From Candidatus Bathyarchaeia archaeon (lineage in GTDB: Archaea; Thermoproteota; Bathyarchaeia; 40CM-2-53-6), in contig JBEKFP010000001.1 of the NCBI GenBank assembly GCA_050013255.1, positions 1 to 64,000 of the forward strand: 64,000 nt of DNA, given 5' to 3'. The notes beneath the pieces were generated by a model. That model was not told the origin of the DNA and did no database searches. It saw only the letters and a list, made by a program, of their open reading frames with translations. Below, in pieces: positions 11,863-26,603 of this stretch. How positions within the stretch are numbered: position 1 is the stretch's first letter; every line of letters starts with the position of its first letter. Position numbers and translations under genes: made by a program.

Positions 11863-12316
11863 GGGATACTAAACGAGGCGCCGCTTATAGGAGTCCCTAT
11901 CGTCCGAATCTATCCCTCGCTAGGTCTTTGCCACATTCCCCGCAGCTACTCTTTGAGCCTATTTCTGTTCGCCAAGAGGTGTTCACACACCACCGTTACG
12001 GAACATGCTACTACACGTATTGCCACGTTCATGACCGATCCGACCAATCCAGTCTGCTACCACTCTGGGAATTCTTTGCCTATATTGGCAAGTCGAGACA
12101 TGCGATCTTCAACTGTTTAGATGGGTTGCGAATCGTCTTCTGAGGTTGGGCAGGGCCAAGTATTGGTACCCCTTTTATAGTACTCATGCCGTTTGCACAG
12201 GCAGTATGCTGGAGATCTTACCTGCGCGGATGATGGGGGGCTGCCAAGCCCATGCCAATTATCGCGGCGAGTATTATCTTTCGTATAACTAGAGAAAATG
12301 GATGGTGAAAAGCGAG

Positions 12317-12469
12317 ATGGGTTACGAGAATCGACGATCTGGTGCCCCGAGGCAAATGACGAAAGTCAAATGCTCCGACTGTGGTGCAGAAACGGAAGTA
12401 CCGTTTGTGCCGACGACGGGCAGACCAGTCTACTGTAGAGACTGCTACCAGAAGCACCGAAGCTACTAG
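12317..12469 (+). CDS. CxxC-x17-CxxC domain protein, 50 aa
   Basis: Hand-translated ...KCSDCGAETEVPFVPTTGRPVYCRDCYQKHR; GGTGA upstream. Confidence 0.9.
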   Translation: MGYENRRSGAPRQMTKVKCSDCGAETEVPFVPTTGRPVYCRDCYQKHRSY

Positions 12470-12621
12470 GCAAAGCCACTAGGCGAAGAGCCTAGAACCT
12501 TTGTTGACCGAAAATTCTTCATTTTATTTATCCTCAAATGTAAGATATCAAGGGTTTCTTGATCCAGATCTAGCAATGAAGTTGGTAAGTTAGAAAAGGA
12601 CTTTGTTCGAACCGTACGATA

Positions 12622-12752
12622 TGGTGGGCCCGGAGGGATTCCAACACTCGACCAGGTTTCTTAGTTCGGCGTATAAGCTTTGATAGTCTTCTCTCGCTCT
12701 AACCTAGCTGAGCATCCCGGGATTAGACTTGGATCGGATTCCTTACGGGCCC
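12622..12752 (-). pseudogene. decayed tRNA-Ile(UAU) with three introns (9/10, 30/31, 37/38)
   Basis: GGGCCCG acceptor and encoded CCA; colinear with the tRNA at 25800; T-arm substitutions and a 3-nt deletion after the anticodon arm. Confidence 0.75.
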
Positions 12753-12941
12753 GGGTCCAGCATTACAGAATCCTGGTTAGTTGAATATCTTCCAGTGCTT
12801 CGGCGTTGTGTGCTTATAGCGAGCGATGTATTGTTGTAGTACGGATTTTGGGAGAGGGGTACAATCAGCTCTGATGAGAAACCTTTCTGGAGCATTCCCC
12901 GCGCAGAGTTATTTGAACAGCTTCAGACGACCCCTGAAGGT

Positions 12942-15380
12942 TTGACCAATGATGAAGTTCAACGACGGCTCTCGTCATATGGATACAATCTGCTAAAGGA
13001 AAAGAAGAAAGCTGACGCCATCACGCTTCTTCTTAATCAATTCAGAAGCCCTCTCGTACTCATCTTGCTCGTTGCAGCTATACTTTCCATCTTTCTGCAG
13101 GATCGAGCAAGTGCAGCAATTATCTTGGCCATCGTATTCGTCAGCGGTATACTCGGGTTCTGGCAAGAACGGGGCGCAAGCGATGCCGTGAAGAAGTTAC
13201 TTTCAATCGTACAGGTCAAAACGACTGCGCTGCGCAACGGAGAACCAAGCCAAATTCCTCTAGAGCAGATCGTACCAGGAGATGTTGTGATACTGAACGC
13301 AGGGAACATGGTTCCCGGTGACTGCACGCTTATTGAAGTTAGGGACCTTTTCGTTGATGAAGCGACGCTTACGGGTGAGACTTACCCCGCAGAAAAATCC
13401 GTCGCGGTCCTTGCGCCTGACGCACCTTTGAGCGCTCGCTCGAACACTCTGTTCATGGGAACTCATGTCGTCAGCGGTACTGGCAAAGCTCTTGTCGTAA
13501 CAACCGGGAAGAAAACTGAATTCGGAAAGATTTCTGAAAGTCTTGCGCTTAAACCTCCAGAGACTGGGTTCGAGCGTGGTGTCAGGCAATTCGGCTACCT
13601 CCTCATGGAAATCACTCTAATCATGGCAATCGTGATCTTCGCTGTCAACGCCTACTTGGGACGGCCGATCCTTGTATCCTTTCTCTTCTCAGTGGCACTC
13701 GCAGTTGGTTTAACACCACAACTACTGCCTGCCATAGTAACCGTAAATCTTGCGCACGGCGCGAAGGAAATGGCAAGGCAGAAAGTTATCGTGAAACGGC
13801 TTGTCTCAATTGAAAACTTTGGCAGCATGAACCTTCTCTGTTCGGACAAGACGGGAACCCTAACCGAAGGAAAAGTAGAGATCCATTCTGCCATTGATAT
13901 CGAAGGCAACACCAGCCAAAAGGTTCTCCTATACGCATGTCTGAATGCCAATTTTGAGAGCGGCTTTGCAAACCCCATAGACGAAGCAATTCGAGCAAAG
14001 AGTACGTTCGACTTCACCCCTTACAAGAAAATTGACGAAGTCCCATACGATTTTGTGCGGAAGAGACTCAGTATCCTGGTGTCAAAGGATAACATCCATA
14101 TCATGACGACAAAAGGCGCGGTACCAAACGTACTCGACGCCTGTACCCAAGCAGAGACCCCGAATGGGGCTGTTCAAATTGCAGATGTTCGTGAGCAAAT
14201 CCAGCAACGCTTCGAAGCCTTGAGCGGTCAAGGTTTCCGGCTGCTTGGCGTGGCATACAAGAACGTTCCTGCTGACCGCATTGGCAAGGATGAAGAAACC
14301 CAGATGACTTTCTTGGGTTTCTTACTATTGTTTGATCCGCCTAAGCCGATGATCAAAACAGTTCTACAAAACCTACAGAACCTTGGAATTGCGTTAAAGA
14401 TCATAACGGGAGACAACAGATTCGTCGCGGCATCTCTGAGCACACAGGTAGGACTAACCAGTTCACGTGTTCTAACGGGCCCTGAACTACATCTTATGAG
14501 TGACGAAGCGCTCCTTGAGCGAGTCAAAGTTACCGACGTGTTCGCCGAAGTCGATCCCAACCATAAAGAGCGAATTATCTTAGCGTTCAAGAAAGCAGGA
14601 TATATTGTAGGCTTCATCGGCGATGGAATCAATGACGCCTCAGCACTCCATACTGCAGACGTCGGAATCTCGGTGAACACTGCAGTAGATGTAGCTAAGG
14701 AAGCTGCTGACATCGTATTACTTGAGAAAGACCTAGGTGTTCTAGTACAGGGTGTGCAAGATGGTCGAAAGACTTTCGCTAACACTCTCAAGTACGTGTT
14801 CATGGCTGCGAGTGCCAATTTCGGAAACATGTTCAGCATGGCGGGAGCTTCACTCTTCTTATCCTTCCTACCTTTGCTGCCCACGCAAGTTCTGCTTACA
14901 AATCTCATGACCGACTTCCCTGAAATGGCCATACCCACGGATAGCGTTGACAGTGATATGGTGCAGAAACCCAGACGCTGGAACGTAAAATTCATCCGGG
15001 ACTTCATGATGACTTTCGGTCTCCTTAGTTCGGTCTTCGACTACGCAACATTCGGTGTACTTCTCTTCATCTTGCATGCAACAGCGGATCAGTTCAGAAC
15101 AGGTTGGTTCATTGAATCAGTGGCCTCTGCCACTCTGATTGTCCTAGTCATTCGCACTCAACAACCGTTCTTCAGAAGTAAGCCTAGCAAATACCTTATG
15201 TTTGCGACATTAGCCGTAGTAATTGCAACTGTTCTTCTGCCCTTTACGGCCCTAGGAACGTTGTTTGGATTTGTTCCTATCTCGCTTACTTTCCTTCTCT
15301 TCACTGCGATTATTGTTGGACTATACGTTCTGGGCGCCGAGCAAACCAAGCGGCTTTTCTACAAGCATGAAGGATTCTGA
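12942..15380 (+). CDS. mgtA: Mg2+-translocating P-type ATPase (MgtA-like)
   Basis: LTGE, VGLTPQLLP, DKTGTLT, GDGIND, SANFGNMFSM, FRTGWFIES; true start probably upstream, near 12864. Confidence 0.93.
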   Translation: MTNDEVQRRLSSYGYNLLKEKKKADAITLLLNQFRSPLVLILLVAAILSIFLQDRASAAIILAIVFVSGILGFWQERGASDAVKKLLSIVQVKTTALRNGEPSQIPLEQIVPGDVVILNAGNMVPGDCTLIEVRDLFVDEATLTGETYPAEKSVAVLAPDAPLSARSNTLFMGTHVVSGTGKALVVTTGKKTEFGKISESLALKPPETGFERGVRQFGYLLMEITLIMAIVIFAVNAYLGRPILVSFLFSVALAVGLTPQLLPAIVTVNLAHGAKEMARQKVIVKRLVSIENFGSMNLLCSDKTGTLTEGKVEIHSAIDIEGNTSQKVLLYACLNANFESGFANPIDEAIRAKSTFDFTPYKKIDEVPYDFVRKRLSILVSKDNIHIMTTKGAVPNVLDACTQAETPNGAVQIADVREQIQQRFEALSGQGFRLLGVAYKNVPADRIGKDEETQMTFLGFLLLFDPPKPMIKTVLQNLQNLGIALKIITGDNRFVAASLSTQVGLTSSRVLTGPELHLMSDEALLERVKVTDVFAEVDPNHKERIILAFKKAGYIVGFIGDGINDASALHTADVGISVNTAVDVAKEAADIVLLEKDLGVLVQGVQDGRKTFANTLKYVFMAASANFGNMFSMAGASLFLSFLPLLPTQVLLTNLMTDFPEMAIPTDSVDSDMVQKPRRWNVKFIRDFMMTFGLLSSVFDYATFGVLLFILHATADQFRTGWFIESVASATLIVLVIRTQQPFFRSKPSKYLMFATLAVVIATVLLPFTALGTLFGFVPISLTFLLFTAIIVGLYVLGAEQTKRLFYKHEGF

Positions 15381-15385
15381 CCGCG

Positions 15386-16195
15386 ATGAAAATACACAAC
15401 AGACTCCTCGTGACCCCTGGGAAGAAAAACAAGCTTAGCAAGTTCGATCCAGACGATACTCTGGGATTGAAGAACGATGAGAGGTCGCAGAAGATGCTTC
15501 AGAAGCTCATTGCTCGGCTAGATGATTTACAACATCTTCTCTATGCTTCAAAGAAGTGCTCACTTCTCATTGTTCTTCAAGGAATAGACGGAGCCGGAAA
15601 AGACGGGACCATCCGTCACGTGATGTCAGGAGTAAATCCCCAAGGTTGCCGCGTTACATCGTTTAAGACCCCCTCTGCCGAAGAAGCAGCTCATGACTTC
15701 CTATGGCGCATCCATAACGCTATTCCCGAGCGGGGCGAGATAGGCATATTCAACCGTTCTCACTACGAAGACGTCCTAGTAGTAAGAGTTCACAAGCTTG
15801 CGCCGGAATCTATTTGGTCAAGGCGCTACAAACAGATCAACCATTTCGAAAGGATCCTTGCCGAAAACAACGTTAAGATATTGAAGTTCTACTTGCATAT
15901 CAGTAAGGAAGAACAGAAGAAGCGCTTCCAGCAGAGATTGGATGATCGCACCAAATGGTGGAAACTTTCGCCGGCTGATTTCCAGGAGAGAAGGTACTGG
16001 AACGACTACATGGAGGCTTACGAAGATGTGCTGCGATATTGCAGCACTCCATGGGCGCCATGGTACGTTATTCCCGCAAACAAGAATTGGTTCAGAAACC
16101 TTGCAGTTTCACATATCATTGTCAAGACCCTAGAGGATTTGAACATGAAATTTCCGAAACCTTCTTTCAACGTCTCTCGGTACGTTCTCAAGTAA
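15386..16195 (+). CDS. ppk2: polyphosphate kinase 2, single-domain (class III-like)
   Basis: QGIDGAGKDGTI, GVNPQG, HDFLWR, FNRSHYEDVL, APWYVIPA. Confidence 0.93.
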   Translation: MKIHNRLLVTPGKKNKLSKFDPDDTLGLKNDERSQKMLQKLIARLDDLQHLLYASKKCSLLIVLQGIDGAGKDGTIRHVMSGVNPQGCRVTSFKTPSAEEAAHDFLWRIHNAIPERGEIGIFNRSHYEDVLVVRVHKLAPESIWSRRYKQINHFERILAENNVKILKFYLHISKEEQKKRFQQRLDDRTKWWKLSPADFQERRYWNDYMEAYEDVLRYCSTPWAPWYVIPANKNWFRNLAVSHIIVKTLEDLNMKFPKPSFNVSRYVLK

Positions 16196-16466
16196 CTAAA
16201 TGCTCGAGGAGAGGCCGTGCAAGAAGATTAACTGTTTTCCCTCCACAATCCAAACAAGCGTGCCCCACTAACAATCCGCTGTGAGAACTACAGTTCCACT
16301 ATCCCAGATCGAATATCTCAACCAATTCCTACCTCAAACTCTGTTTCTTTTGGTTTGCTTATGACCTCGAATAATGCTGTTACGCTCACAGTTCCAAGTA
16401 CCCCTCCTCTTACGCTATGCGTCAGCACCGAAACTGATTAACCCACGCGCAATCAGTTCCAATATC

Positions 16467-17039
16467 ATGAAAGAGATAGAGATCAAGATCATCGAAATTG
16501 ACAGAAAAACGATTGAAGATAAATTGACAACTCTAGGCGCTGCGAAGACTTTCGATGGCGATGTAGAAACTTGGTTTTTTGACTTTCAGGATGATACAAT
16601 TACGCGGGCAAGAAACCTCTTGCGTCTTAGGAGAATTGGCAACAGAACTGATTTGGCGTTCAAGAAGTGCGTGGAGAGCCAGTCGGCAAAGGTTAGAAAT
16701 GAGTATGAAGTCTCAATCTCGGATTTTGAGACGATGCGCTTGATACTCGAATCCATTGGCCTTATCTCAACTTGGCGAATGGAGAAACACCGAACGAGTT
16801 ATGTGCTGAGTGGGGGCGTCCATGTTGACATTGACAAGTATTATGGGGACTTTTCGCATATACCCGAGTCAATGGAGATCGAGGGTGGAGACATTTCCAC
16901 GATACGCGAACATGCGAAGTTGCTCGGATTCGGCCCCGATGACTGCAAATCTTGGGATACCTTCGATTTGATTGATCATTATTCAGGAAAGAAAGCTAGG
17001 GATGACTCACATGGAATCGCCCCCAGTCCAGAAAGTTGA
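16467..17039 (+). CDS. CYTH-domain protein (class IV adenylate cyclase / triphosphatase family)
   Basis: N-terminal EIEIK, LRLRR, EKHR, EIE. Confidence 0.85.
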   Translation: MKEIEIKIIEIDRKTIEDKLTTLGAAKTFDGDVETWFFDFQDDTITRARNLLRLRRIGNRTDLAFKKCVESQSAKVRNEYEVSISDFETMRLILESIGLISTWRMEKHRTSYVLSGGVHVDIDKYYGDFSHIPESMEIEGGDISTIREHAKLLGFGPDDCKSWDTFDLIDHYSGKKARDDSHGIAPSPES

Positions 17040-19164
17040 ATCACTTCCGAGGATTTTGGACGATCCAGCTCTTTTCATAAATCGCGAAGTTAGTTGGATA
17101 AAGTTCAACAATAGGGTCCTCGAGGAAGCTCAAGATCGTCGTCATCCACTGTTAGAACGCGTGAAATTCCTCGCCATCAGCGGAAGCAATTTGGATGAAT
17201 TTTTCATGACCCGCGCGTCCATCCTTGAGCAGCAGATTGAGAGAGGCGACTTTGAGCCAACTCCGGGCTCGCGAATGACTCCGCTGGAGCAAATCAAGGT
17301 AACTAGACGCGAAATCCTTCCACTACTCAGAAGTCAAAGGAAATGTTTGGAAGAGGGACTTTTGCCGGCATTGGCCAGAGAGGGCATACGAATACAGAAG
17401 CCTAATGATCTGACTGAGCGACAGAAGCTAAACCTTCGCGACTATTTTCGGAGAGAAATACTTCCGGTCATGAAGAAACCGGATGAAGAATATTTCTCGC
17501 CCTACATCTCCAATCTCCACATCAACCTACTGGTAGTGGCCAACGACCCAAGATTGAGGGAAACTTCAACTAAAGTCATTGTTGAAGCGCCTACGGACAA
17601 TTTTGACAGGTTCATTAGGATACCCACATCGAGTGGCCGTCGTGAGGGCGTGGACAATTTCATACTGTTGGAGGATTTGGTTGGTGCCAACTTGGATCTG
17701 CTATTTCCGTCAGCTCGAATTCTTGGCCATTACAAATCTAGAGTAACGCGAAACGCGGAGATAGATGTCATTGCAGATGAAAACACCGATTTCCTTACAA
17801 CCATGGAGTTGAGCGTCAGACAGAGGCGCTACGGCAAGCCAGCTCGACTCGAGTATGAGAGTTCTATGCCTCAGCATTTACGTGCCTACCTAGCAGGTAC
17901 TATAGGTTCAGTCCGTGTTCCACAGCAAATCTCCGAAGACGTGCAATACGAGATTGATGGCTTCTTTGGGCTAGTGGACTTCTGGCAGCTCCTTAAGCTG
18001 AACAGGCCGAACCTCAAGGACACACCTTTCAAAGGGTACATCATTCCCGAGCTGAGACCGGGCAAATCGGTCTTTGCAGAAATAGCCGCGAAGGATTTTG
18101 CGCTATACCACCCATACGATAGTTTTGACATGATAGTGAACGTGCTTGAGAATGCGGCAACAGATCCTAATGTCAGCGACATCTACATCACCCTCTACCG
18201 TGTTGATCCTGATTCTCCCATTGTTGCTGCCTTAAAGAAAGCCGCCTCTAACGATAAAAGAGTGACAGTCTTGATCGAACTGAAAGCGAAATTCGATGAG
18301 ACTAACAATATCAACTGGTCAAAAGCGCTAAGTCAAGCAGGAGTGAAAGTCGTCTACAACTTCCCCAAGATCAAGGTCCATGCTAAGCTAGCTCTAATAG
18401 TGAGAAAACAGAACGGCAAGCTGGTTCAATACTCACACATCGGATCTGGGAACTACAATTCAATCACCACACGCATCTACGGAGACATCGGCTATCTAAC
18501 CGCCAACCCTCAGATAGGGACCGAAGTCCTAGACCTCTTTCACAAGCTGACAAGCGACCTCAGAACGGCAGAACCGTCCAAGTATCTACTGGTTGCGCCT
18601 ACGTCGCTGAAGAGCGAGATACTGAGGCGCATCGAGAGGGAGATAAATCGGCATCAGGAAAAGGGGAGCGGTTACTTGGCTTTCAAGGTTAACGGATTAG
18701 TGGATAAAGGAATCATTCAAGCACTCTACAGGGCATCGCAAGCAGGAGTGAAGATCGACCTCAATGTTAGGGGGCTGTGCTGCCTGAGGCCGGGTATTCT
18801 TGGCGTAAGCGAGAATATCCGCGTTATCTCCATCGTGGGGCGTTTCCTCGAACACGCCAGAATCTACTACTTCCGGAACGGCGGTGAGGACGAAGTCCTG
18901 ATCGGCAGCAGTGACATGATGCCTAGAAATCTTGAGAAGCGAGTGGAGGTACTTCTCTCCGTGCCGGATCCTATGATAACGTCCTCCATTCTGAGGATTC
19001 TAATGATTCACCTGAAGGACAATGTAAAGGCGAGACGCCTCCTCGCAGATGGTACCTACGAGAAAGTTGAACCCGAACCTGGAGCGGAAATCATCGATTC
19101 CCAACGCTGGTTAATCGAAAACAGAGGAATCTGGCATGAGACGACAAACCCTCGTCCACCTTGA
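17002..19164 (+). CDS. ppk1: polyphosphate kinase 1
   Basis: NREVSWIKFNNRVL, SNLDEFFM, HPYDSF, ELKAKFDE, KVHAK, GRFLEHARIY, DMMPRNL; start approximate. Confidence 0.95.
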   Translation: MTHMESPPVQKVESLPRILDDPALFINREVSWIKFNNRVLEEAQDRRHPLLERVKFLAISGSNLDEFFMTRASILEQQIERGDFEPTPGSRMTPLEQIKVTRREILPLLRSQRKCLEEGLLPALAREGIRIQKPNDLTERQKLNLRDYFRREILPVMKKPDEEYFSPYISNLHINLLVVANDPRLRETSTKVIVEAPTDNFDRFIRIPTSSGRREGVDNFILLEDLVGANLDLLFPSARILGHYKSRVTRNAEIDVIADENTDFLTTMELSVRQRRYGKPARLEYESSMPQHLRAYLAGTIGSVRVPQQISEDVQYEIDGFFGLVDFWQLLKLNRPNLKDTPFKGYIIPELRPGKSVFAEIAAKDFALYHPYDSFDMIVNVLENAATDPNVSDIYITLYRVDPDSPIVAALKKAASNDKRVTVLIELKAKFDETNNINWSKALSQAGVKVVYNFPKIKVHAKLALIVRKQNGKLVQYSHIGSGNYNSITTRIYGDIGYLTANPQIGTEVLDLFHKLTSDLRTAEPSKYLLVAPTSLKSEILRRIEREINRHQEKGSGYLAFKVNGLVDKGIIQALYRASQAGVKIDLNVRGLCCLRPGILGVSENIRVISIVGRFLEHARIYYFRNGGEDEVLIGSSDMMPRNLEKRVEVLLSVPDPMITSSILRILMIHLKDNVKARRLLADGTYEKVEPEPGAEIIDSQRWLIENRGIWHETTNPRPP

Positions 19165-21538
19165 CTTCTTCGGGGACAAATCCGCTTACTGTCTTCTCGG
19201 CGCCGATATGCTGCTAAGACAAATTGTGACGCTGGAGAACCAGATAGATGGCGTAAGGAAGAACGATGACATCGAATTCATGCATAAATTAAGAGTCACC
19301 TCGCGAAGGATGAGAGCGGCTCTTAGCCTCTTCGGAGAATGCTTCCTAAGAAAATCCTCAAAGAAATGGATTAACGCCATCAGGAACGTAACGAGATCCT
19401 CAGGAGCGGCTAGAGACGCAGATGTCCAACTGGTCTTTTTGGAGAATTACTCAAGAACCGTCGAAGACAGAAGCGCGTTGCCGGGTCTGGCATACCTCAC
19501 AACGCTGCAGAGGGCGCGCAGGGTTGGAATGCAATCCGACATAGTCAGCGTCCTTGACGCGCTAGAAGGCTCCAACATTCTCGCAGACATTTCTGACAGT
19601 AGCATGACCCTCCTAAGGAATCTACGTGAACAAAACCGTAGCGAACCCGTCATCAAGACACCATCCAATTACGAGAAAGCTCGCGATCACATTTCGAGCA
19701 GACTCGATGATGTCCTGGCTCTGGAACAGTTCGTCCATGATGAGAGTGCAGCCGTAAAGCATCACGAACTGAGAATAGCGACGAAACGGCTAAGATATAC
19801 GATGGAAATCTTCTCTCCCCTTTACAAGGGAGAGCTGAAAGAACAAATCTCGCTAATGAAGCAGCTCCAAGACGTACTAGGCGAGATCCATGACTATGTT
19901 GTATGGGTTCAAGAGTTCAGCGTCTATCTGCAAGGTGTCCCAGACGATGCTAGATACGGCGTGAGTAAGGTACTAAGCCACGCAGCTGAAATGAAGAAAT
20001 CCCGTTACAAGGATTTCGTGACACTATGGGATAACGCCGTCGCGAAGGCCCTCTTCGACAACATACGGCAGGTAACTGAAACAGGACCGAGTAGCGAGGT
20101 TGTTCGCGAAATCTTGAACCATGATAACCCACCTGTGGCTGTCATCTCAGATGTTCATGGCAATCTCGACGCATTCAAAGCAGTTGTAGTGGATGCAAGG
20201 AGATCGGGAATCGATGTCTTTCTCAACGCGGGAGACGCTGTGGGCTTCGGCACTTACCCAAAGCAGGTGATTCGAGCGCTTCGCTCTGCGATGTTTCTGA
20301 ACGTGATTGGGAACGTCGATCTGGAAGTCCTCGAGAAGGGGTTACAGAATCCCAGAGCGGAGAAGAACAGCATAATGCAGTTCACATTCAGGGAACTAGC
20401 ACCGTCCGACCTAGCCTACCTCCACTCCCTCCCGAAGGAACTGAGACTCGAAATATGTGGCAAGAAGATACTGCTCACTCATGGGACTCCTGACTCAATC
20501 AACGAACACATATATCCAAACACACCGAGCAAACGACTCAAAGAGATCGCATCAAAGGCCAATGCTGAGGTAATTATCACTGGGCACTCCCACATACAAA
20601 TGAACAGGAATGTGGGCGGAGTCACGTTCGTGAATCCAGGGAGCGTTGGTCGACCCGCTGACGGTGACTACAGAGCGGAGTATGCCATAGTCAGATTCAA
20701 TCCATTTTCCTTGGAGTTCAGAAGAGTCAACTATGACGTTGAGGCTACGGCCAACGAGATAAGAAGGAGAGGGCTACCCGAAAGCCTCGCTCAAGTTCTA
20801 CTGCGAGGCGTTTCCCTCGATACTGTCAAAGAACTGGATGATGCGCTCGAGAAAAAGCAACTGTGGAAGAGACGCTCGACCATAAGCAAAGTGAGGAGAA
20901 TAGCAAAGAGGTTCATTTCCGACAATTCGCATGCTGAACAGAGCAGAAAGCTAGCGCTAGTGATTTTCGACAAGACGAGACGACTGCACTCTATGAGCAG
21001 GAAGGAACGCTACTGGTTAGAATGCGCGGCTATCCTTCATGATATCGGACTATCAAGAGGCAATAGGGGTTACCACAAATCATCGCTTAGGCTAATATTG
21101 AACGATCTCGAATTCCCTTTCACCTTCAGAGATAGGTACATGATAGGAAGCGTCGCAAGATACCATCGGAAGGCAATGCCAGATGCGAACCATTTCAATT
21201 TGGCACAACTTAGTGGAGTCGAGAGACAGGAAGTCGTCGTCCTCTCGTCGATACTGCGGGTCGCGGAGGCGCTTGACTGTTCTAGTGAGTTCATCGTGAG
21301 GAAAATTGCCGTGAGGGTACTGCCTAATCAAATGGTTTTGGAGTGTGAGGCCACAGGAGACATCTACACGGGAGACCAAGCGTTCAAGAAGATGAAGAAT
21401 CTTCTAGAGAAAACTTTCGGACGCGATTTAATCATCGTATGGAAGACACGGCAAACTCGCCGAAAGCGCCATCCAGCATTGCAGGCTCATAGGGATAGAG
21501 CCGTCCGATCTCGCACGAGAACCCGACAGCCGAGCTGA
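19136..21538 (+). CDS. CHAD + calcineurin-like metallophosphoesterase + Ppx-type HD fusion
   Basis: HKLRVTSRR and HELRIATKRLRY (CHAD); SDVHGN, GD, GN, THG, GHSH, NPGSVG; AAILHDIG. Confidence 0.88.
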   Translation: MRRQTLVHLDFFGDKSAYCLLGADMLLRQIVTLENQIDGVRKNDDIEFMHKLRVTSRRMRAALSLFGECFLRKSSKKWINAIRNVTRSSGAARDADVQLVFLENYSRTVEDRSALPGLAYLTTLQRARRVGMQSDIVSVLDALEGSNILADISDSSMTLLRNLREQNRSEPVIKTPSNYEKARDHISSRLDDVLALEQFVHDESAAVKHHELRIATKRLRYTMEIFSPLYKGELKEQISLMKQLQDVLGEIHDYVVWVQEFSVYLQGVPDDARYGVSKVLSHAAEMKKSRYKDFVTLWDNAVAKALFDNIRQVTETGPSSEVVREILNHDNPPVAVISDVHGNLDAFKAVVVDARRSGIDVFLNAGDAVGFGTYPKQVIRALRSAMFLNVIGNVDLEVLEKGLQNPRAEKNSIMQFTFRELAPSDLAYLHSLPKELRLEICGKKILLTHGTPDSINEHIYPNTPSKRLKEIASKANAEVIITGHSHIQMNRNVGGVTFVNPGSVGRPADGDYRAEYAIVRFNPFSLEFRRVNYDVEATANEIRRRGLPESLAQVLLRGVSLDTVKELDDALEKKQLWKRRSTISKVRRIAKRFISDNSHAEQSRKLALVIFDKTRRLHSMSRKERYWLECAAILHDIGLSRGNRGYHKSSLRLILNDLEFPFTFRDRYMIGSVARYHRKAMPDANHFNLAQLSGVERQEVVVLSSILRVAEALDCSSEFIVRKIAVRVLPNQMVLECEATGDIYTGDQAFKKMKNLLEKTFGRDLIIVWKTRQTRRKRHPALQAHRDRAVRSRTRTRQPS

Positions 21539-21705
21539 GCGCGTCGCTCAGGTGAAGCTTGATCGTTAATGTTCCTAAGATAAACGAATGTTGCCAATTC
21601 ACATGTGGATATGGGAGAGGATTCCGCCTGCCCACCTTTGATAAGCAGAAGTTACAAACCACTACAGCCTGCAACAGTGAGCCCATTTAACCAGAAGTGC
21701 AAGGC

Positions 21706-23214
21706 ATGTCGAAACTCGCCGCAATTGATGTCGGTTCAAACGCGATACGGCTAGCGATAGCCTCAGCCGATGATGAGGGGAGGTTGCACATAGTCCAAAC
21801 TGACCGAGAGGCAGTGCGGCTAGGCTCCGATGTGTTCGCAAAAGGCGAGATTTCCGATAGTCGACTTGTTGAAGCAATGGATGCGTTCCTCAAATTTCGA
21901 AGACTGATCAACCAGCACAAAGTGAAGTCAGTGAGAGCAGTGGGCACTAGCGCTATCCGGGAAGCACGGAATCGAGATTATTGCATAAATCAGATTGCAA
22001 AAGCGACCGAAATAATCATCGAGCCAATTAGCGGAGAAGAAGAGGCACGCTTGCTTTACTTAGCTACTTCTAAAGCCGTGAACTTGGAGGGCAAGGTGGC
22101 GCTCCTCGTGGATATTGGCGGCGGTAGCGTCGAGATAACCCTCGCAACCGGACGCGAGATAATTGCCACCGAAAGCTTCGGCATTGGCACTGTCAGACTA
22201 TTGCAGATGCTGGAACAGAAGAAGCGGGGTGAGAGAGCCTTTCGGCAGCTTGCTCGTGAATACATCAACGTTTCAGGTACGCGCCTTCGAAAGGAAATCG
22301 GTGAACGCAAAGTAGACTTATGCATCGCTACTGGCGGCAACGTCGAATCCCTAGGAGACCTACGAGTACAATTGTGCGATGGAAGAGATGACACTTCGGT
22401 AAGCATGGACGAGCTCGGTTCAATTCTTAAAGAGCTACAGTCCCGGTCTTATGAAGACAGGATCAAAGACTTCGGATTACGACCGGACAGAGCAGACGTA
22501 ATCATTCCAGCTACGATCGTTCTCCAAAGCGTCGCGAAAGAAGCACAAGTCCAGCAAATCCTAATCCCCCGCGTCGGAGTCAGAGAAGGACTTCTAATTG
22601 ATATGGCAGAAGGGCTGAAGGGCACTGCAGGACCACTGCACCGAACCCAAGTAATCACCTCCGCAAGACTGCTGGGAAGGAAGTATGATTACGAAGTGCA
22701 GCATGCACTGACTGTCGCCCGTTTCGCGGTTCAACTGTTTGACGCTACAAAGAAGCTCCATAAGTTGGGTTATGACGAAAGGACGCTTCTCGAAGGTGCC
22801 GCACTGTTGCATGACATCGGCTACTACATCGGTCAAACGGACCACCACAAGCACACATACTATTTGGTCAATGCTTCACCCATACTTGGTCTCGACGATA
22901 CGGAGAAGGCAATCGTCGCGAATGTGGCTCGCTATCACAGCCGATCATTCCCTAAACCTAACCATAAGGAATACGCGGACCTTTCACCCAAACGGCGTCA
23001 AATAGTTGTCAAATTGGCTGCAATCCTGCGGCTCGCAGAAGCCCTGGACCACGAGCATTCCAACAAAATACAACATATCAAGCTTATCAAAGGCAAAAAG
23101 AAGATCATTCTGCGTCTGAGGGGTCAAGGAGACCTACTGCTTGAGAAATGGGCACTGAGTTACAATTCTCGATTATTCCAAAAAGTATACAAGAAAAAAG
23201 TAGTGATAGAGTAA
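21706..23214 (+). CDS. ppx: exopolyphosphatase Ppx/GppA with HD domain
   Basis: AIDVGSNAIRL, ISGEEEA, DIGGGSVE, RADVI, GVREG, LLHDIG. Confidence 0.95.
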   Translation: MSKLAAIDVGSNAIRLAIASADDEGRLHIVQTDREAVRLGSDVFAKGEISDSRLVEAMDAFLKFRRLINQHKVKSVRAVGTSAIREARNRDYCINQIAKATEIIIEPISGEEEARLLYLATSKAVNLEGKVALLVDIGGGSVEITLATGREIIATESFGIGTVRLLQMLEQKKRGERAFRQLAREYINVSGTRLRKEIGERKVDLCIATGGNVESLGDLRVQLCDGRDDTSVSMDELGSILKELQSRSYEDRIKDFGLRPDRADVIIPATIVLQSVAKEAQVQQILIPRVGVREGLLIDMAEGLKGTAGPLHRTQVITSARLLGRKYDYEVQHALTVARFAVQLFDATKKLHKLGYDERTLLEGAALLHDIGYYIGQTDHHKHTYYLVNASPILGLDDTEKAIVANVARYHSRSFPKPNHKEYADLSPKRRQIVVKLAAILRLAEALDHEHSNKIQHIKLIKGKKKIILRLRGQGDLLLEKWALSYNSRLFQKVYKKKVVIE

Positions 23215-23317
23215 TGACGAAGTCACAAGGCCAGATCCGGAAGATCCATGCAAATCCATCTCCGACGGAGTTCGCCCGGGTTGGAAGACTACATGGCAAT
23301 CAGAAGGTTGTCTATAG

Positions 23318-25093
23318 TTGAGTAAAACTCCAAGGAGAAAGAGGACGCCGACTAGGCCACGCCAGTCATCGTGGCGACCCCGCTCAGCAAGAACTCCACT
23401 CAAGAACGTGAGAAAAAGAAAAACAACTCCTTCCAACATAAAGCCCAAAAGAATCGGGAGAATATCGGCGAGTAGAAAGCGATATTCTCCCAACGCACGA
23501 CGTTCATCGCCAAAACGAGTTAAAGGAAGAACTCCAAGGAAAAGCGCGAGAAAGAGAGAGAAAGGCAAGGGATCTTCAAAGAAACCCATCCTGACAGGGC
23601 GACTCGTGCAGAGCTATCCTAGGAAGCCACGTCCACGCCCATCACGCCGAGCCATATCTAAACGGCATGCACCAACGCCGATTGCAATTAGACCACCAAC
23701 ACGGAGACTGAGACGGAGGGCACGCGTCCCTGACGTGCTAAACTTCATTTCCGACACCTTGGAGCGTGAATGGAATGGTTACAGGAAGCGTCTCCAGGAA
23801 TTTCGGCAGAAGGCGTCGGTCAAGAACGTCCACGATCTTCGCGTTAACATAAGGCGGCTCATGACGTGCCTTGAGTTGATTGAGCGATTCAATCCGGATA
23901 ATGCCGTCCGGAGAGCCCGCATTAACCTCAAAGAGCAATTGTCAAAGCTTAGCAATCTCAGGGACGCTCACGTCGAAATGGTGGCTATTCGCGGCTATCT
24001 GAGACAGTTACCTGAGATCAAACAATTCTACGATGAGTTACGCGATAGAGAAAGCGACTACCTCAGCGCCGCCAAGAAGATGTCCTCGAAGACGAAATTC
24101 ATTGAAAACGCGATCAATAGGGCGAAAGTTCGGCTTGTGGCTCGACGAGCCACAATAACTGTATCAGGCGCCAGCAAAATCATCAACGATGCAGTGGATC
24201 GTTCCTTTGACAATGTCAACGGAAAACTCGAATACGTCACTATCGCTGACTATTCAACGATTCACAGCGTAAGACTCGCATTCAAACCGTTCAGATACCT
24301 GCTGGAGATGCTGCAACCGTTGATTCCAATAGAACGCAAGCAGTTAAGAACCGCTCAATCGCTCGCGCGAATGATGGGTAAAATCCAAGACATTGAGGTT
24401 CTGATGAAGCGGTTGGTTGAATTCAGATGGAAAAAGGATAACGCTCGGCGAGCCATGATTGAAATATGGTTGGATCTTGAACGAAGAAAAACTGAGGCCG
24501 CTCAACGCTTTCTAAGAGCTATTCCTAAGTTGGGGAATATTTGGAAACCAATAATCCATGAACAAACGGGGTTCAGGACTGTTGATTCAAGAACCCTCTA
24601 CGTTCTCCGGCACGGGATCGCAATCGCCCGCGGAGACCCGGGCTATCCATTAGATTCCGACCGCCCGTTAACGTCCAAAGGAATGAAGAAAGTGCGTCGG
24701 ATCGTCACGGGAATGCGCCGTCTTGACGTTGAGTTTGACGTCATTCTAACGAGCCCATATAGGCGAGCGCTTGAAACTGCGTTCGAAGTCGGTCGAGAGT
24801 ATAGACTAGGTGAAATGATTCAAACTACACCTGCATTGAAACCAGAGGTTCTCCCAGAAGAAGTGATCAGGGTACTGCAGGACAAGTATGCATCAAATCG
24901 TAATCTGTTACTTGTGGGACATGAGCCTCAACTAAGTGCGTTTGTCTCCACGTTGACTTCAGGTAGCGCAGGCGCAAGGCCACTAATGAAAAAAGGAGGG
25001 CTATGTAAGCTTCAAGTAGAGAAGTTGCAAGTCGGGAAGTGTGCGACGCTGCTGTGGCTTCTTACCCCCAAACAACTCACTAATATGGCCTAA
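23318..25093 (+). CDS. CHAD + SixA-like histidine phosphatase fusion with long basic N-terminal extension
   Basis: HDLRVNIRRL (CHAD); LRHGIA, RPLT, TSPYRRALET, LVGHEP (SixA); start uncertain. Confidence 0.85.
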   Translation: MSKTPRRKRTPTRPRQSSWRPRSARTPLKNVRKRKTTPSNIKPKRIGRISASRKRYSPNARRSSPKRVKGRTPRKSARKREKGKGSSKKPILTGRLVQSYPRKPRPRPSRRAISKRHAPTPIAIRPPTRRLRRRARVPDVLNFISDTLEREWNGYRKRLQEFRQKASVKNVHDLRVNIRRLMTCLELIERFNPDNAVRRARINLKEQLSKLSNLRDAHVEMVAIRGYLRQLPEIKQFYDELRDRESDYLSAAKKMSSKTKFIENAINRAKVRLVARRATITVSGASKIINDAVDRSFDNVNGKLEYVTIADYSTIHSVRLAFKPFRYLLEMLQPLIPIERKQLRTAQSLARMMGKIQDIEVLMKRLVEFRWKKDNARRAMIEIWLDLERRKTEAAQRFLRAIPKLGNIWKPIIHEQTGFRTVDSRTLYVLRHGIAIARGDPGYPLDSDRPLTSKGMKKVRRIVTGMRRLDVEFDVILTSPYRRALETAFEVGREYRLGEMIQTTPALKPEVLPEEVIRVLQDKYASNRNLLLVGHEPQLSAFVSTLTSGSAGARPLMKKGGLCKLQVEKLQVGKCATLLWLLTPKQLTNMA

Positions 25094-25799
25094 TATCGTG
25101 CGCACCGGAATTCTATTCCTTCACCGAATGAACATGAAGCATTTTCATAACATGTTGTGGTGCGGTCCATAATGAATCTGTAATTACAGCGATCTTTCGT
25201 TGACCTTGACCGATCGGTGAAGCAACCGTCCTTTCTCCAAGCAAGCTACTTGCAAAAGTCATTATCAGGATGATCAGAGCATTGAATGGCTGTGCTGTTT
25301 GGGTCTCCCAATTCTGTAGACTATCGCGTGGCCACGTGTAGATGCCTCTATCCACTTGCAGTCCCTACAGCGCCTAACGGATTCTCAAGCTTCCGACTCG
25401 AATCGCGTCGTTGACCTGCACCTAGGACAAAGCAGATAAAACGACGACATGGATGAGTCAGACAGCTACGCTCTAGTAATCGACTGTGTCAGCGAAAAGT
25501 TGAACCCACTAAAGGCAATTTAGTGGGCGAAAAAGATGATGAATCCTTTAAGTTCAGAGCGATGTTAACTGCTCATTCAACAGATCAGTTTACAGTCTCT
25601 CTTGTGACGCAATCGAGCTAAATTCTAAATCCTAAATTCTATCACGATCAGGAGTGCAGAAAATTGGACTATCCCTATACCAACAGGTACAAGGACGCTG
25701 CCATAGCCGTGGGTTTGGAAGGATCGATGGTCGAAATCGACCAAAAACAGCTCAAAACGAGACAGAAGCTCTAAAAACCGGTCATCGAACCCGACGATA

Positions 25800-25904
25800 T
25801 GGTGGGCCCGGAGGGATTCGAACCCTCGACCAGCAGGTTCCTCAGTTACGCATATGAGCTTCGACCTTCTTTCTGTCGCTCTAGCCTAGCTGAGCTACGG
25901 GCCC
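25800..25904 (-). tRNA. tRNA with CAU anticodon, probably tRNA-Ile2; introns at 30/31 (13 nt) and 37/38 (14 nt)
   Basis: Spliced 78-nt cloverleaf GGGCCCGTAGCTCAGCTAGGCTAGAGCGACAGGCTCATAACCTGCTGGTCGAGGGTTCGAATCCCTCCGGGCCCACCA; splice helices CGAC/GTCG and CTCA/TGAG. Confidence 0.9.
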
Positions 25905-26409: not shown

Positions 26410-26560
26410 TGGTGCTCCGGGCGGGATTTTCTGCGATTGGACCATCGCTTTCGAACCCGCGTCGCTGACTCTCTCCACAAGCTCGAGAGGCCAGCATACT
26501 CTCGGCGTCACACGCCTTGACCGGGCTATATTCGGTAGCTTAATCAGCTTCTACCGGAGC
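26410..26560 (-). tRNA. tRNA-Glu(CUC) with four introns
   Basis: Removing inserts of 20, 17, 13 and 23 nt gives a 78-nt cloverleaf ending in CCA; each insert forms a strict or relaxed BHB motif. Confidence 0.9.
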
Positions 26561-26603
26561 CCCAGCTGCCCGGAGCACCCCGACTATCGCAACCCAACGG
26601 TAT

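Follow-up and report, generated by a model that had tools for sequence, protein, structure and literature searches.

The stretch of DNA analyzed here (the window; 64,000 nucleotides) comes from a soil or peat Bathyarchaeia MAG of 2.46 Mb, referred to below as G000. On its minus strand, at positions 12752 to 12622, lies a 131-nt tRNA-like gene (the candidate). An earlier note on this DNA had described the candidate as a paralogue, with anticodon TAT, of the tRNA(CAU) gene located at 25904 to 25800 on the same strand, and alignment bears this out over the full length of the gene. Homology between the candidate and this resident gene extends from tRNA position 1 to 15 nucleotides beyond the CCA, and the upstream flanks of the two genes are unrelated. 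Within the homologous region, a 49-nt stretch is 92% identical (E 5.6e-12) and forms a direct repeat on the same strand (12607-12655 and 25785-25833) with a separation of 13.2 kb. A homology search finds this kind of tRNA-Ile2 at only two loci in the 2.46-Mb genome. We use the term type A for tRNA-Ile2 genes that carry introns at positions 9/10, 30/31 and 37/38, and the term type B for those that lack the 9/10 intron. The features of the locus are collected in Table 1.

Table 1. Coordinates of the candidate copy, the resident tRNA gene and the island between them, in positions of the window
Feature	Position	Strand	Basis or remark
Candidate exon 1	12752-12744	-	Sequence GGGCCCGTA
Candidate 9/10 BHB intron, 30 nt	12743-12714	-	hBHBh' geometry; nearly intact, with a single h' mismatch (GGAAT/AATCC)
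Candidate exon 2 (D-arm exon)	12713-12691	-	Alignment to the functional gene
Candidate 30/31 intron remnant, 12 nt	12690-12679	-	Central helix lost, in contrast to the functional gene and every intact homologue
Candidate anticodon exon GCTTATA	12678-12672	-	TAT at 12675-12673
Candidate canonical 37/38 intron, 14 nt	12671-12658	-	Partner TAAG now fully paired with CTTA
Candidate 3' exon, 36 nt	12657-12622	-	Terminates in CCA
Candidate upstream flank, 36 nt, type-A kind	12753..12788	-	Homology to G002, G008, G012 and metagenome type-A genes
Candidate 3' flank, 15 nt, TATCGTACGGTTCGA	12607..12621	-	13/15 match to the flank of the functional gene
Polyphosphate/cation island, 13 kb, seven genes, between the tRNA copies	12789..25784	+	Pfam
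Functional tRNA-Ile2(CAU), type B	25800..25904	-	Rfam RF00005, 47.9 bits (match 25803-25904); spliced 78-nt cloverleaf (ARAGORN)

The Rfam match to the resident gene is the only tRNA that Rfam detects in the window, and the spliced form of this gene is accepted by ARAGORN at default settings. Both of its introns are held in BHB motifs. The 30/31 intron has the helix h GAG/CTC, the central helix H CGAC/GTCG and the bulges AG^A and AA^G, and the 37/38 intron has the central helix CTCA/TGAG and the bulges TA^T and GA^A. Type-B orthologues with the same flank are present in the congeners G014, G018 and G033. We read the resident CAU gene as tRNA-Ile2 and not as elongator tRNA-Met because a separate eMet-like gene with the acceptor GCCGGGG is located at C2:730137, because the genome encodes TiaS, and because of the GGGCCCG acceptor of the resident gene, which we take to be of the isoleucine type. 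TiaS, for which the earlier note had proposed a search, is represented by a 455-aa open frame with a match to PF08489 (TiaS_FLD) of 141.7 bits (C1:1397954-1398292).

Given that the source is a MAG, the candidate block might in principle be an artefact of assembly or sequencing, either a chimeric join or an error-ridden copy of a repeat, which was one of the outcomes named in the earlier note as fatal to its reading. However, the 211 nucleotides from 12590 to 12800, which include both junctions, are 100% identical in a contig (L133) of GCA_049586655.1, an independent NCBI assembly that differs from G000 elsewhere (99.3% identity across 5.65 kb). Furthermore, the differences that set the candidate apart are substitutions and a homologous intron, with no homopolymer errors. 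Because an independent assembly carries the identical block, we regard an artefactual origin as highly improbable. These two assemblies are the only ones that carry both a type-A-derived and a type-B tRNA-Ile2.

The most conspicuous difference between the candidate and the resident gene is the insert at position 9/10. This insert is composed of the helix h (GGG/CTC), the central helix H (CCCG/CGGG), the bulges TA^A and AT^G and the helix h' (GGA/TCC), arranged in the order GGG-CCCG-TA^A-GGA...TCC-CGGG-AT^G-CTC, which is the geometry of a BHB intron. Its excision yields exactly GGGCCCGTA followed by GCTC, the same sequence as in the intron-less gene. A homologous insert is found at the same position and with the same upstream flank in five congeners (G002, G006, G008, G010 and G012), in each of which the intron-bearing gene is the only full-length homologue of tRNA-Ile2 found. 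Therefore, the insert must be removed for the gene to work in these organisms.

The 9/10 intron is also found well beyond these five genomes. In a class-wide sample it occurs in 13 of 401 genomes, which comprise the five other species of the genus, the candidate's own genome, six of the ten genomes of a sister genus, and a single genome from a different family. A pattern scan recovered it from 64 metagenome contigs, some of them from lineages whose exons differ. In the 40 unique variants, the CCCG/CGGG helix, the two 3-nt bulges and the first three base-pairs of the inner helix are constant, a constancy that is partly imposed by a search pattern that fixed most of the paired bases, and the loop varies in both length and sequence. 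Some changes in h' are compensatory (e.g. GGATT/AATCC versus GGATC/GATCC). Thus, functional orthologues combine a constrained motif with a free loop. The geometry and this conservation agree with the earlier description of the insert as a near-ideal BHB, and together they indicate that it is a genuine BHB intron that is conserved in working copies.

Intact type-A relatives resemble the multi-intron tRNA genes of Thermoproteales in carrying three BHB introns of the hBHBh' form with variable loops, and three such introns is the maximum cited for tRNA genes of that order (PMC4090602; PMC4033280). Unlike those genes, however, the type-A genes are hosted by Bathyarchaeia, and their 9/10 intron has been stably inherited in one isoacceptor through at least two genera and not recently transposed. 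The latter point follows from the copy number of the insert: recent intron transposition predicts a second copy of the 30-nt insert elsewhere in the 2.46 Mb, and none was found. An intron at position 9/10 does not appear in the reviews consulted, among them the enumeration in PMC4090602, which closes with ‘etc.’; because such lists are open-ended, novelty cannot be claimed for it on this ground. What is mildly novel here is the conservation of a three-intron tRNA-Ile2 in this family of Bathyarchaeia.

The candidate itself departs sharply from the genes that share its architecture. Exons of 22 intact type-A genes differ from one another by a median of one and a maximum of three positions, despite non-exon identities down to 54%, whereas the candidate differs from them at 7-8 of 78 exon columns. 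These columns comprise C28>G, C34>T, a 3-nt deletion at tRNA positions 43-45, G52>T, C56>G and one polymorphic D-loop site, such that four substitutions and the deletion fall at exon positions otherwise invariant among the 22 intact intron-bearing genes. C56>G gives rise to the T-loop sequence TTGGAAT, and G52>T creates a mismatch in the T-stem. C28>G, in combination with a GTCG>ATCA change, converts the central helix of the 30/31 BHB from CGAC/GTCG to CGAG/ATCA. Intact homologues show no variation in the original helix or in its bulges, AG^A and AA^G. Every sign of decay listed in the earlier note (the altered T-loop, the T-stem mismatch, the 3-nt deletion and the broken 30/31 helix) is thus present.

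Searches for a functional tRNA at this position gave concordant results. The candidate precursor has no RF00005 match in Rfam even at E<=10 and is not reported by ARAGORN, and its in silico spliced form is rejected by ARAGORN at default settings. Only with the -ps80 setting is a cloverleaf drawn, with mismatches in the T-stem and anticodon stem and a truncated variable loop. The candidate therefore yields neither an RF00005 match nor an acceptable cloverleaf after intron removal. Nor do all of its introns lie in cleavable BHBs: the 9/10 and 37/38 motifs are intact, and the 30/31 helix is gone. Upstream, the homologous block is truncated within a conserved element of type-A genes, such that CGAAAAGCATATTC is reduced to ..GGAAGATATTC. 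The conserved CGAAAAGCATATTC element is a putative BRE/TATA, and the promoter of the candidate would thus be cut inside it; presumably, the candidate is not expressed.

As part of the explanation that we favor for the locus as a whole, we consider it highly likely, from these comparisons, that the candidate is a pseudogene that could be neither spliced nor folded into a tRNA. Two observations count against this reading. The acceptor stem and the BHBs at 9/10 and 37/38 have remained almost intact, which implies that the copy is not very old and that some processing is conceivable. In addition, C34>T and a G>T change in the 37/38 intron, which generates the partner TAAG, raise the pairing of the central helix of that intron from two to four base-pairs.

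This second observation is also an argument for a different view, which is that the TAT anticodon was once of use. The earlier note had taken the contrast between CTTA/TAAG in the candidate and CTCA/TGAG in the resident gene as co-variation that looks selected, and had proposed a once-functional alternative AUA decoder. On this account, a C34>U change after duplication or import created an AUA decoder independent of agmatidine, which was kept by selection together with compensation in the intron, and which then decayed. CTTA/TAAG indeed forms a perfect 4-bp BHB helix, and the closest CAU relatives pair at two of four positions (CTCA/GAAG). The second change, G>T, which improves this pairing, is weak evidence for such a decoder. 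Precedents also exist, as isoleucine tRNAs with a UAU anticodon are known from Korarchaeum and Nanoarchaeum, although tRNA-UAU occurs in only 2 of 167 archaeal genomes (PMC6000648).

However, the contrast between the two genes in the window compares two different alleles, the candidate being derived from type A and the resident gene belonging to type B. Among type-A genes, 20 of the 22 intact CAU copies already have an A in the intron facing position 34 (mostly in the form GAAG). C34>T therefore pairs without any compensating change, and only this one substitution is needed. Even the full TAAG partner accompanies CAT in intact genes (G010, L050 and L085). These observations weaken the argument from co-variation, since the A opposite position 34 is older than the anticodon change.

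The distribution of anticodons is equally at odds with a UAU decoder. All 82 intact homologues carry CAT (18 of 18 species-representative genes and 64 of 64 metagenome genes) and none carries TAT, so that the conservation of UAU among orthologues that would mark a natural UAU decoder is not seen. A TAT-specific scan of the metagenome collection for an otherwise intact version returned no matches. The search for an intact tRNA-Ile(UAU) with a 9/10 intron that the earlier note had suggested accordingly found only CAT genes in related genomes and metagenomes, and nothing in IMG/VR. A simple scan of the genome also found no intron-less UAU tRNAs, a result that is weak because nearly all tRNAs in this genome carry introns.

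Further arguments come from the genome and from decoding. G000 encodes both TiaS and an intact CAU gene and thus does not lack a route (TiaS/TilS) for C34 modification. A study of haloarchaeal tRNA-Ile2 (PMC3895270) reports that the C34U form binds AUG besides AUA and describes U34 mutants as poor substrates for IleRS. Moreover, the putative promoter of the candidate is truncated at the very boundary of the imported DNA. With natural tRNA-Ile(UAU) of Korarchaeum cryptofilum, Nanoarchaeum equitans and Mycoplasma mobile, the candidate shares a UAU anticodon on an isoleucine-type tRNA body. To our knowledge, the genomes of these three organisms lack a C34-modifying enzyme. In contrast to those tRNAs, which are intact, the candidate has a broken body, resides in a genome that has TiaS and a CAU gene, and has no intact UAU relatives that could be found.

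We therefore think it very improbable that the imported copy served for a time as a U34 reader of AUA, with C34>U and G>U co-selected before later silencing and decay. If this were true, the locus would represent an attempt, caught in the act, at switching AUA decoding in an archaeon that still possesses TiaS. Most simply, TAT is one of several decay mutations, and the functional ancestors of the candidate were CAU genes.

The origin of the copy can be addressed by comparing the sequences at the locus with a neighboring gene. The thermosome gene that adjoins the tRNA in G000 is 95% identical to that of G014 and 82-83% identical to those of G018 and G033, all of which have type-B genes with the same flank. 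Its identity to the thermosome genes of type-A genomes is 72-74%, and the latter are 78-100% identical among themselves. In contrast, the flank and introns of the candidate are up to 82% identical to those of type-A genes, which equals the median within the type-A clade. Because 82% identity in unconstrained sequence does not fit vertical descent between lineages whose thermosome genes are 72-74% identical, this comparison indicates import from the type-A clade; the earlier note had likewise supposed that the copy was imported. The P-type ATPase gene beside the candidate is likewise 92% identical to that of G008, a type-A genome, against a background of 74%.

On a vertical alternative, the lineage itself would have had a three-intron gene ancestrally, and the candidate would be what was left of it after a type-B gene arrived and displaced it. 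Since at least two genera and one other family have three-intron genes, this form may be the older one. However, the type-B gene and its specific flank are common to the clade of G000, G014, G018 and G033, whereas the candidate is present only in G000 and L133. The identity of its flank and introns to type-A genes is, as noted above, too high for such a history, and the candidate lacks the adjacent multi-intron tRNA that neighbors all native type-A genes. We consider descent of this kind to have very little chance of being correct.

The immediate donor was sought in several collections. Scans of IMG/VR (viral and plasmid contigs) for the tRNA, the 9/10 intron and the att-like core gave zero matches each, and a donor arrangement in which a type-A gene stands beside the ATPase or the island is absent from the genomes and contigs searched. 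In G008, the ATPase and tRNA genes are on different contigs with unrelated neighbors. No type-A contig matches the sequence from 12789 onward.

The candidate is located at the far end of the island, downstream of the functional tRNA-Ile2. The seven genes of the island encode a P-type ATPase, PPK2, CYTH, PPK1, a CHAD-phosphoesterase, Ppx/GppA and a CHAD-His phosphatase. The island is shared in mosaic form with G014, the closest relative, at identities of 67-96% (90-96% from the ATPase through CYTH, 67-77% for PPK1), and G014 lacks the candidate copy. Within the genus, the mosaic includes an ATPase 92% identical to that of G008, a PPK2 88% identical to that of G017 and a PPK1 82% identical to that of G012. 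G018 and G033 have no closely related island at the tRNA, and their left and right flanks are not adjacent.

Homology to type-A genes stops exactly at 12788, where homology to G014 and L132 resumes. The same left flank (with a zf_Tbcl_2 gene) and the same ATPase are found in G000/L133, G014 and L132, and the fillers between them differ, all ending at 12788/12789. G000 and L133 have the candidate block at this place, G014 has 108 nt of unrelated sequence, and L132 has a 2.2-kb SulP/STAS transporter segment. No homologue of the 108-nt filler was found anywhere searched. Left of the candidate, a 55-aa treble-clef zinc-finger gene (12302-12469, plus strand; PF23477, E 6e-20) sits in a segment of ~300-400 nt. 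Many genomes of the genus contain this segment at 80-86% identity, and G000 has a second copy of it at C2:745102-745403.

The tRNA-Ile2 locus is an insertion hot spot. Scars that correspond to 30-45 nt of the 3' end of tRNA-Ile2 are found 1-5.6 kb downstream of the intact genes in G014 and G018. The scar loci are G014:C11 (L041 5900-7070) and G018:C2 (L044 3900-4050). One G014 fragment (frag1) and the G018 scar are preceded by GAACCCACGATAT, which approximates the reverse complement of the TATCGTCGGGTTC flank found after the CCA in G018 and G000, and the G018 scar is therefore bracketed by an inverted repeat of ~13 bp. In a metagenome contig (L103), the 70 nt downstream of a type-A gene are of the same 3' flank type as in the resident gene. 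A casposon-like arrangement, with terminal inverted repeats of the 15-nt flank, was considered for the island and rejected, as the island contains no inverted copy. A third direct match of this flank, at 15444 inside the PPK2 ORF, is within chance expectation.

This setting raises the question of whether the candidate is an attR-type scar. The island would then be an integrative element that used a whole type-A tRNA-Ile2 as its attachment site and whose integrase was later lost; a minority of our confidence rests with this proposal. Recombination within the shared 3' exon and flank would have placed the resident gene and the element's own copy at opposite ends, a route to which we assign the same limited likelihood. 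In agreement with this idea, the two tRNA copies are direct repeats that bracket inserted DNA, with a 49-nt core that reaches 15 nt past CCA, the locus attracts insertions that leave 3'-end fragments in G014 and G018, and the island genes are most similar to those of type-A-clade genomes. However, no integrase was found in the seven large ORFs of the island (Pfam assigns them to polyphosphate and cation-transport families only), at the island edges, or in the extra 5.7 kb of G014. The usual scars at this locus are 3' fragments of ~30-45 nt, whereas the candidate is an entire gene together with promoter DNA. In G014, which shares the island, an unrelated sequence takes the place of the candidate, in L132 the SulP segment is found there, and the site was on none of the viral and plasmid contigs searched. 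An attR-type scar is a specific route within the explanation that we prefer and does not contradict it.

The same features place the candidate both close to and apart from the tRNA pseudogenes and att duplications that border archaeal and bacterial islands. As in those systems, the candidate is a non-functional direct repeat of a resident tRNA that brackets a variable, exchanged block, and the same tRNA carries further 3'-end scars in relatives. Unlike them, it comprises a whole gene plus 36 nt of the donor promoter region instead of the 3' 30-50 nt, it stems from an allele type (with an extra intron) other than that of the resident gene, and an integrase is absent.

On balance, the candidate is very probably a dead, horizontally acquired copy of tRNA-Ile2, an ordinary pseudogene rather than the relic of a UAU decoder. 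Its ancestor would have been a three-intron tRNA-Ile2(CAU) gene of a sister clade in the same genus, a form also found in the neighboring genus, whose CAU product would be converted by TiaS into a reader of AUA. A piece of ~180 bp, reaching from the interior of the donor promoter to ~15 nt past CCA, would have entered the lineage by horizontal transfer and landed at the highly variable junction at the distal end of the 13-kb island, downstream of the resident tRNA-Ile2. The piece may have been co-imported with island DNA through recombination at the tRNA locus, or it may have arrived separately by a later illegitimate insertion. Because the resident gene and TiaS already decode AUA, the extra copy would have been free to drift, acquiring C28>G, C34>T (and hence TAT), the deletion of 43-45, G52>T and C56>G, and losing the 30/31 helix, with half of its promoter lost as well.

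Taken alone, the candidate is an ordinary tRNA pseudogene that reveals nothing new about AUA decoding. It does illustrate how comparison with intact orthologues can explain a seemingly ‘rare anticodon’ in a MAG, and it cleanly marks an exchange of DNA among clades of a single genus, at a hot spot that is linked to a tRNA and carries a complete set of polyphosphate genes. Of wider relevance is that a soil and sediment family of Bathyarchaeia carries a three-intron tRNA-Ile2, with a stably inherited 9/10 intron, that is missed by standard tRNA finders. In the whole G000 genome, ARAGORN reports 30 tRNAs and the Rfam tRNA model 19, and these counts are low because nearly all tRNA genes contain interruptions, many of them more than one. 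Annotation pipelines will therefore under-call tRNAs in such MAGs.

Several other elements near the tRNA genes were observed. Between the island and the resident tRNA, a 210-nt stretch (25280-25491, plus strand) is 91% identical in the distant congeners G004 and G011 and has no ORF family assigned, and an adjacent weak match to a C/D-box sRNA (Rfam sR5, 17.7 bits, E 0.31) at 25533-25585 (plus strand) contains GATGATGA. Both are possibly small RNA genes. On the minus strand at 26410-26589 lies an element of ~180 nt that is 76-96% conserved across genera, and a counterpart precedes every native type-A gene, ~58 nt from the tRNA start and 22 nt farther out than the 36-nt upstream flank. Rfam and ARAGORN both report nothing for this element, which nevertheless reads as an intron-rich tRNA whose acceptor is GCTCCGG...CCGGAGC-A-CCA and whose T-arm (GCGGGTTC.AA / ATCCCGC) is interrupted by an insert. 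A further insert directly after GCTCCGGTAG is seen in this genus but not in others. Elsewhere in G000, fragments that resemble the 3' half of a tRNA follow a palindrome, GAACCCTCAATATTGAGGGTTC, at C3:~138050, and similar fragments are located at C3:131030 and C2:295571. These could be halves of split tRNAs or att sites of elements.
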